NCBI RefSeq assembly: GCF_030013595.1
Contig: NZ_CP122768.1
Length of the DNA: 64,000 bases
Reading direction: 5' to 3' (one strand)
Source of the DNA: Escherichia coli
GTDB taxonomy: Bacteria; Pseudomonadota; Gammaproteobacteria; Enterobacterales; Enterobacteriaceae
Position 1 is the stretch's first letter, and every line of letters starts with the position of its first letter. This document shows positions 56,501 to 57,797 of this stretch, one piece after another. The notes under the pieces were generated by a model, which did not search any database, was not told the DNA's origin, and saw only the letters and a list, made by a program, of their open reading frames with translations. The position numbers were made by a program, and so were the translations under genes.

Positions 56501-57745
56501 CTATAGCTGTTTATTCCAGAGATGCTTGAAAATATCTAATGTTGAGACAACATTGGCAGGCGACATTCGGTTTAATGAGGGTAGAAAGGGATGAGCCTCC
56601 AGGAAGTTGATAAAACGAGTCGCGCTTGCCAACGTCGAATACCGCATTTCATTTGCTTTCTTGTTTCCTGTAAGGTTACAAACAGCCATTGAATAATCAC
56701 GGGCGGAAAATGCACGCCAGACATTATTTCTCACGCCACCACTCAAAAATAACCGCGGCGGCGTATCATAATGAGTCGTTTTCTCGCCGCGTTCTTTCAC
56801 AAAGGAAATATGGCACCGGCCTTGATGAATATGCTGTAAATTAGCCATCAGACAACCGCCTAATATAAAGCACTCGTGATCAAGGTAGTGTTGAATATTT
56901 ATAGAATATGCTTCAGTCAGTGCTCTAACCAGTTCAAAATGGCGATACGCCGGAAGAACCGGTTTCACCAGCATCCCCGGATCGTTTTGATGTAATATCG
57001 CCCGACCATAATCAATATCAAATAAGGTATCACGCCGCATAGTAAGTAACTCCTTGCGTTGTACGTGATGCGCCAGTGTACCTGGAGACAAACGCTCTTC
57101 ATAACTTGATGCATATTGATAATGCGACTCTACCGCTGATGAAGAATAATTTGTTGAAATAGCGACGACTCTACCGCTTTGTTCTTCTGCGGTAACAAGA
57201 CTATAAAGATAGTTGTTACTACAGTTAAACTTTACGCGAAAAGCGCGGGTAGATAGAGAAATATCAGAAGCAGAAGAGTACTGGCAACTTTCTTTATAGT
57301 TTACTTCCCGGGCTAGTTTCATCAACTCACGGTTAAGCCCTGTGCTATTAAGAAGTAATAATTTACGGATATCTGCAAGTGAAGCGCCTTGATCAATCAT
57401 CAATGCTAAATGTGTTCTTCGCGGCGTTGTATTTACATGATCCAGAGTGATAAAAGTTCTGGAACAATGATGACAATACATTCTCCTCTGCCCCTGAGCT
57501 GAATAGCCATACTTTTTCAGAGATGTGCTTCCGCAAGCTGAACATTGTGGAACCAACCCTCTCCATGAATGATTAACACGATTACGATAAATATTAAGAG
57601 ATCGTTCAGATATCACAGGAAACAAGTAACCGCATTCCCGACATAAAATATTTTTGCCTTGTGCAATATAATCCTGGCTATTCAACAACCCCAGGTTTTT
57701 GCATCCTGGTGTTTTGCAACAATCAACATTTACGTTGGTAAACAT
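56501..57745 (-). CDS. Hypothetical protein with two N-terminal transposase-type zinc ribbons (414 aa from the Met at 57745; 426 aa from 57781)
   Basis: Motifs CCKTPGC...CRECGY and CSACGS...GYSAQGQRRMYCHHCSRTF resemble IS1/IS1595-type transposase zinc ribbons; AGGGAG Shine-Dalgarno precedes the internal ATG at 57745; no radical-SAM CxxxCxxC. Confidence 0.55.
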   Translation of the reverse strand: MFTNVNVDCCKTPGCKNLGLLNSQDYIAQGKNILCRECGYLFPVISERSLNIYRNRVNHSWRGLVPQCSACGSTSLKKYGYSAQGQRRMYCHHCSRTFITLDHVNTTPRRTHLALMIDQGASLADIRKLLLLNSTGLNRELMKLAREVNYKESCQYSSASDISLSTRAFRVKFNCSNNYLYSLVTAEEQSGRVVAISTNYSSSAVESHYQYASSYEERLSPGTLAHHVQRKELLTMRRDTLFDIDYGRAILHQNDPGMLVKPVLPAYRHFELVRALTEAYSINIQHYLDHECFILGGCLMANLQHIHQGRCHISFVKERGEKTTHYDTPPRLFLSGGVRNNVWRAFSARDYSMAVCNLTGNKKANEMRYSTLASATRFINFLEAHPFLPSLNRMSPANVVSTLDIFKHLWNKQL

Positions 57746-57797
57746 ATTCACTCCCTGCGAATACCCGGATATTATCGTCATATGTCAAAGAAAAGAA

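Follow-up and report, generated by a model that had tools for sequence, protein, structure and literature searches.

What is a protein that begins like a transposase doing behind a sulfatase gene in Escherichia coli? The gene in question, here called X, lies on the minus strand of a 64,000-nucleotide stretch of E. coli DNA (the window), which is 99.9% identical to E. coli pig isolates. The first-pass annotation of this stretch had described an open reading frame at 56501-57781 with two transposase-type zinc ribbons and had raised the possibility of a domesticated transposase. The open reading frame is indeed intact, but its start is not at 57781, which would add 12 residues that are absent from every X homologue. 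Because all of the aligned homologues (24/24), along with the PGAP annotation of strain IAI39 in RefSeq, begin at an internal methionine (MFTNV...), the real coding sequence is 56501..57745 (minus strand), specifying 414 amino acids plus a stop. A Shine-Dalgarno sequence, GGGAG, lies 7 nt upstream of this corrected start. Residue numbers given below refer to the 414-aa protein; those of the earlier description are higher by 12.

Both of the four-cysteine modules reported at the N terminus are present, and the second has the CxxC...CxxC spacing ascribed to it; the first, to which the same spacing had been ascribed, reads C-x4-C...C-x2-C (CKTPGC...CREC). Module 1 (C10-x4-C15...C35-x2-C38; 57632..57718, minus strand), recognized from the conservation of its cysteines and from beta-hairpins in the structural model described below, matched no described family. 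Module 2 (C68-x2-C71...C91-x2-C94; 57449..57544, minus strand) is a zinc ribbon of the IS1/IS1595 InsA type by both NF050000 and hhalign. It carries the IS1/IS1595-type signature YGYSAQGQRRMYCHHCSRTF picked out at first reading, and it matches NF050000, the "IS1/IS1595 N-terminal zinc-binding domain" model, at 31.8 bits (E = 1.6e-7), which is above the cutoff of 28, so the likeness is not a product of chance. None of the eight cysteines (C10, C15, C35, C38, C68, C71, C91, and C94) varies among 24 orthologues, and in a set of 45 family members each is at least 90% conserved. In terms of NF050000/PF03811, X possesses an InsA-type zinc ribbon, and PF03811 itself is present in the Buttiauxella orthologue; a Pfam scan of the whole of X gave nothing significant. 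The sole match in a PHROGs search was a 90-aa transposase zinc-ribbon family, and PDB sequence searches with X or the family profile returned generic C2H2 zinc-finger noise only.

The resemblance to IS1 continues beyond the ribbon. Residues 64-146 of X align with residues 4-89 of IS1 InsA, a match that covers the zinc finger and the helix-turn-helix (HTH) (hhalign, 96.6%, E = 6e-10) and that was reproduced with a small IS1 alignment; the HTH region of X, as aligned with that of InsA, spans approximately residues 105-155 (57281..57433, minus strand). By profile comparison, then, the second zinc ribbon and the HTH of X are homologous to InsA. Homology between the C-terminal domain of X and IS1 InsB was undetectable by the same means: the comparisons were made with a single sequence, with mact relaxed, and with an alignment of 10 IS1 sequences, and none extended confidently past the HTH, while the search for IS1 homologues returned close IS1 copies only, a set too shallow for a sensitive profile. 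The relaxed alignment ran into the catalytic domain with near-zero confidence and was therefore not used to map DDE residues. Against the IS1 model NF033558, X scored 27.2 bits (cutoff, 100) over profile positions 1-83 of 199, the N terminus only; the match of one family member reaches position 140 of 199. Neither PF03400 nor PF12759 matched X. Genuine IS1 transposases combine PF03811, PF03400, and PF12759 and form clusters of thousands of members on many contigs, and by NF033558 and PF03400 X is not a full-length IS1 transposase. The relatives of the family also include a group of 570- to 630-aa proteins from Geobacter and Thiocapsa named "insertion element protein," which may comprise active IS.

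No Pfam or NCBIfam model covers residues 158-414 (56504..57274, minus strand), and what can be said of them comes from structure prediction. An AlphaFold model built on a shallow alignment of 24 close orthologues had a pLDDT of 62 and was discarded, while the model built with remote homologues from an exhaustive HMMER search reached a pLDDT of 91.6 and a pTM of 0.92. In the latter, the beta1-beta2-beta3-alpha-beta4-alpha-beta5-alpha core of the RNase H-like/DDE fold, as in solved transposases, is predicted. The C-terminal part of X is accordingly modeled, and here predicted, as an RNase H-like domain of the DDE-transposase type followed by a C-terminal beta/alpha subdomain.

Such a fold could mean that X is still an enzyme, namely, a DNA-binding nuclease or recombinase that uses clade-specific acidic residues and acts on DNA or RNA at or near the locus. 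Besides the fold itself, this idea draws on the PIWI domains that were also among the Foldseek matches of the model and on the invariance of D161, D245, D255, E217, E291, and E318 in the 24 sulfatase-linked orthologues, E291 lying just after beta5, the place of the catalytic glutamate in integrase-type enzymes. Across the wider family (45 members), however, D161, D245, and D255 vary, E291 is the only candidate acidic residue that is at least 90% conserved, and no family-wide conserved acidic residue is found on beta1 or after beta4. Where the second DDE aspartate belongs, after beta4, the family has an invariant K261-P262. Given the variation at D161, D245, and D255 and the presence of K261-P262, the canonical DDE triad does not appear to be a feature of the X family; the triad search that had been suggested at first reading thus ended, in the 45-member alignment, with no conserved catalytic triad such as an IS1 transposase possesses. 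Three other residues, R238, H269, and W343, are invariant across the family. The locus also offers a nuclease or recombinase no IS ends or repeats to act on, and the PADLOC defence models returned 0 families for X and two of its paralogues. We regard an enzymatic function of this kind as unlikely. A defence function was rejected on the same PADLOC result.

PGAP and UniProt name some members of the family "IS1 family transposase," and a protein with a zinc ribbon, an HTH, and a transposase-type fold might simply belong to an IS beside the sulfatase gene that is still mobile or that arrived there recently. The surroundings of X argue otherwise. The absence of flanking inverted repeats noted at first reading holds for the interval 56000-58300, in which no pair of repeats straddles the gene; all of the 12- to 33-nt repeat pairs near X are internal or unrelated, and no terminal inverted repeats of an insertion sequence were found. 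X occurs in 1171 of 5426 complete E. coli genomes (~21%), in exactly one copy each and always on the chromosome, with 0 occurrences on plasmids in this collection; matches labelled "plasmid" appear to be mislabelled chromosomes or chromids. Mobility in the form of variable sites, multiple copies, or plasmid carriage was thus not seen. The locus is orthologous in 18 species genomes: X lies between mokC/dnaJ and nhaA in E. coli, E. albertii, E. whittamii, Klebsiella, Kosakonia, Phytobacter, and an unclassified enterobacterium, and it adjoins nhaA in Salmonella and Citrobacter.

X has also been maintained by purifying selection, with a dN/dS of 0.10-0.13 at a dS of ~0.95, and in high-divergence comparisons each of four regions of the gene has a dN/dS of 0.07-0.20. 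Its evolution is several-fold faster than that of its neighbours (dN/dS, 0.02-0.03). A single copy at a fixed locus that is orthologous across genera, a dS of ~0.95 even within E. coli at a dN/dS of ~0.1, and an IS1-model score of 27 bits against a cutoff of 100 make a mobile or newly arrived IS very improbable. We hold it highly probable that X is an immobile and functional host gene derived from a transposase. The domestication suggested by the first-pass annotation is supported by InsA homology, predicted fold, copy number, lack of IS ends, synteny, purifying selection, and lack of a family-wide DDE triad; neither full-length homology to an IS with identifiable termini nor homology to a sulfatase-maturing enzyme came to light. 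A reading of X as a pseudogene was rejected.

Within E. coli, X exists as two deeply diverged alleles, with ~97-100% identity in 230 genomes and ~81% in 941 genomes, the latter including UTI89 and JJ1887 (window 56504-57745 compared with 6001-7242 of the UTI89 locus). The dS between the alleles is 0.94, versus 0.30-0.40 for the flanking nhaA and sulfatase genes, which points to either a long-standing allelic dimorphism or recombination limited to X. K-12 lacks exactly the 4,049-bp block 56490-60538, comprising X, the sulfatase gene, a tsx-like gene, and the promoter, and has 112 unrelated bp in its place; the module is a clean presence/absence polymorphism in E. coli. An IS186 copy at ~60929-62296 occupies the site of K-12 IS186A (99.6% identity over 60539-62371), from which it follows that this strain shares the K-12 insertion yet keeps the sulfatase module that K-12 is without. 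X orthologues are shortened in host-restricted Salmonella (Typhi, 327 aa; Paratyphi C, 247 aa; Dublin, 375 aa; normal length, 417-418 aa), as would be seen if a functional gene had decayed into a pseudogene there. Elsewhere in the window, a fimbrial usher gene (50658-53108, plus strand) carries an in-frame nonsense codon, Gln604 to stop (codon 604, 52467-52469); apart from this codon, it aligns without gaps to the intact 816-aa usher of IAI39 at 99.4% identity.

The function of an immobile X is best approached through its neighbours. The module opens with a Tsx/OmpK-like outer-membrane channel gene (59388..60149, minus strand) and continues with the gene for a periplasmic sulfatase of 497 aa (57875..59368, minus strand), the conserved upstream partner of X. 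X begins 129 bp beyond the sulfatase gene, in the same orientation, as the operon-like array described at first reading implied, but in E. coli an intrinsic-terminator-like hairpin with a 14-bp stem and a U-rich tail (UUCUUUUCUUU; 57797..57827, minus strand) stands between the sulfatase stop and the X start, so that "operon-like" is only partly right for this species. The hairpin occupies the spot at which other genera carry a maturase gene. Outside Escherichia the module consists of the tsx-like channel, a Cys-type sulfatase, a radical-SAM/SPASM anaerobic sulfatase maturase (anSME), and then X; the anSME gene is found between sulfatase and X in Salmonella, Klebsiella, Citrobacter, Kosakonia, and others, usually ~30 bp from X, and the Klebsiella neighbour matches TIGR03942 at 534 bits. 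X follows the tsx-like porin-sulfatase genes (with anSME outside Escherichia) in 10 or more enterobacterial genera, even where identity is as low as 32%, and homologues at 32-43% identity keep the tsx-sulfatase-anSME linkage at other chromosomal sites. Even a low-GC lineage in which X and the maturase and sulfatase genes are convergent has kept the linkage.

X itself is not the maturase. The exclusion of a radical-SAM sulfatase maturase by the first-pass annotation stands, as X has neither a CxxxCxxC motif nor a radical-SAM match, and searches with TIGR03942, PF04055, and SPASM models found no match in it; similarity to anSME or FGE was likewise absent, and X as a maturase of either type was rejected. 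All Escherichia have lost the anSME gene, and independent losses occurred in Phytobacter massiliensis, Klebsiella spallanzanii, K. oxytoca, and Kluyvera intermedia; X was retained in every lineage that lost it. The Escherichia sulfatase has serine at the formylglycine position (SSPSR; codon 79, ~59134), where every non-Escherichia orthologue has cysteine (CSPSR). It is nevertheless under strong purifying selection (dN/dS, 0.02-0.05) despite this serine and the lost anSME, and it must therefore be matured in trans (by AslB or YdeM?) or work differently. The Salmonella locus (404-11091 of its record) is larger, with two arylsulfotransferase genes, a ushA-like gene, an inverted tsx gene, and a 44-aa open reading frame. 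The ushA-like gene stands next to the Tsx channel and also resembles SoxB thiosulfohydrolase (158 bits), and the locus suggests a broader island for sulfate-ester or nucleotide scavenging.

The distant paralogues of X (22-27% identity, ~460 aa) keep different company. In all nine of the contexts examined they adjoin genes for nucleoside or nucleotide scavenging. Five of the contexts are divergent, with deoCABD, deoBD plus a transporter, nupC-deoD, and (twice) a ushA-like gene on the other side; in one such arrangement the paralogue faces away from tal-add-deoC-deoA-deoB-deoD, and in another from deoB-deoD and a nucleoside transporter. Three paralogues lie directly downstream of a ushA-like gene or deoD, among them a Vibrio paralogue directly behind a ushA-like gene and another directly behind deoD. 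Local regulators are classically recognized by just such an arrangement, a lone gene with a DNA-binding module that is transcribed away from neighbouring catabolic operons in several lineages. A 22%-identical paralogue between metF and metL occurs in records labelled as Salmonella and Citrobacter plasmids (5998-7122 and 6031-7206), which look chromosomal by gene content (metJ-metB-metL, metF, katG); it is divergent from a gene annotated as "bifunctional UDP-sugar hydrolase/5'-nucleotidase," and a similar paralogue is also present in some E. coli.

These contexts bear on the possibility that X works at the level of the sulfatase protein, whether as a cytoplasmic chaperone or holdase for the unfolded enzyme, as a partner of anSME, or as part of an alternative formylglycine-generating route. 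X is always found with the sulfatase, usually directly after anSME at a gap of ~30 bp; it was kept after anSME loss in four non-Escherichia lineages as well as in Escherichia; and C292, C298, C311, and H312 are invariant within the sulfatase-linked clade. Yet C292, C298, and C311 are not conserved across the wider family, the conserved N-terminal module is of a DNA-binding type, there is no resemblance to anSME or FGE, and one lineage has X and the sulfatase and anSME genes in convergent orientation. Above all, the paralogues have deo, nupC, or ushA-like genes as neighbours and no sulfatase, and for this reason we disfavour an accessory role of this sort and consider it quite unlikely. The position of X, co-directional with and downstream of its presumed targets in most genomes, fits a regulator and would equally suit an accessory protein encoded in the operon.

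If X is a regulator, the promoter of the tsx-like gene is the place to look for its site. A two-block promoter module upstream of this gene (window 60230-60340) is common to 10 taxa. The downstream block, defined in the 10-taxon alignment, is a palindrome of consensus TGTGAT-N6-ATCACA (here TCTGCGATCTCCATCACG; 60267..60284, minus strand), centred approximately at -41.5 from the inferred transcription start, which is served by a TAnAnT -10 element. Judged by its pattern it looks like a CRP-like site with an 8-bp spacer, a class of CRP site that exists, and it may simply be a CRP site. The upstream block, at approximately -90, has the consensus AAAACAACAT-N4-CTGACAC and in Escherichia reads AGACACACTTTTTGAAACAC (60314..60333, minus strand). 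Its core pattern recurs at sulfatase-type promoters in 12 loci with little background. A search for CAACA-N4-8-TGACA at the deo and ushA paralogue loci found none, the pattern being confined to sulfatase-type promoters; the paralogue loci have ordinary CRP sites with 6-bp spacers. Loci of the Salmonella/Citrobacter type, with their inverted tsx gene, have two copies of the two-block module, one facing each transcription unit (4600-5192 of the Salmonella locus). We take the -90 block, which has diverged in Escherichia, as a candidate operator for X.

The reading to which we incline, with some reserve, is that X descends from an IS1-related transposase, has been domesticated, and now regulates transcription locally through its InsA-type module, the dead RNase H-like domain serving multimerisation or effector sensing. 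Genomic context makes such a role plausible. The InsA-type zinc ribbon and HTH would recognize an operator in the promoter of the module, the best candidate being the conserved block at approximately -90, alongside the CRP-like site at -41.5. The RNase H-like domain, having lost the canonical DDE triad, would contribute multimerisation, sensing of an effector, possibly a nucleoside-type signal, or both. The targets would be the adjacent tsx-like porin and sulfatase genes and, where present, anSME. We infer DNA binding at the X locus in the same way as we do the identity of the operator, the direction of control (activator or repressor), and the effector. A wider proposal, which we entertain tentatively and would not yet count on, is that X and its paralogues constitute an unrecognised bacterial family of transcription factors derived from DDE transposases, spread over Enterobacterales and Vibrionales and devoted to periplasmic scavenging. 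In this proposal, an additional zinc module precedes the InsA zinc ribbon and the HTH, which are followed by an RNase H-like domain that is catalytically dead and would serve sensing or multimerisation. The genes under control would be those for tsx-like porin/sulfatase, ushA-like nucleotidases, and deo/nupC, and the RNase H-like domain may sense a nucleoside-type ligand.

The zinc-binding domain of X is already flagged in databases, in which the family goes by no other names than "cytoplasmic protein," "IS1 family transposase," or "zinc-binding domain protein"; two thirds of the protein lie outside any Pfam model. Full-text searches found no literature on the family, and the full-length fold, the domestication, the linkage to sulfatase and nucleoside genes, and the regulator hypothesis were not found in searchable annotation or papers. 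Domestication of transposases into host regulators is well documented in eukaryotes; in bacteria we know of few cases, and of none documented for a full-length DDE-type transposase. The family occurs in major pathogens, including ExPEC/B2 E. coli (UTI89 and the ST131 strain JJ1887), Salmonella, Klebsiella, Citrobacter, and Vibrio. Should X prove to be a regulator, this would explain how an uncharacterised porin-sulfatase module and genes for nucleoside or nucleotide scavenging are controlled, and a common annotation error, by which IS counts are inflated, would be put right. The linkage is also an entry point to the substrate of the sulfatase, for which the Tsx-type channel in the module suggests a nucleoside-like sulfated compound.

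Several known systems help to place X. Those closest to it include the transposases of IS256/Mutator (ISCth4, PDB 6xg8) and IS4/Tn5 (1mm8). With IS1 InsA/InsAB' (NF033558; PF03811 + PF12759 + PF03400) it shares the order of zinc ribbon, HTH, and RNase H-like domain. The inverted repeats at the ends of IS1 are bound by its zinc finger and HTH, and InsA on its own represses transcription (PMC12428005). Unlike the 232-aa IS1 protein, X has 414 aa and an extra N-terminal zinc module, lacks a conserved DDE triad, a frameshift, and inverted repeats, and is present as a single copy at a fixed locus. The anSME proteins (AtsB/AslB/anSME; TIGR03942) share the genomic neighbourhood of X, and Cys-rich proteins encoded behind a sulfatase gene often bear the annotation "arylsulfatase regulator," but X has no CxxxCxxC, SPASM domain, or model match, and the true anSME is a separate gene. 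A precedent for the role proposed here is found in plants, in which the transcription factors FHY3/FAR1 derive from Mutator-like elements (PMC13306707). Like them, X is a single-copy gene that has kept the DNA-binding domain of a transposase, and it would have lost catalysis and would regulate host genes; whereas FHY3/FAR1 are eukaryotic and experimentally proven, X is bacterial and has an IS1-like ancestor.
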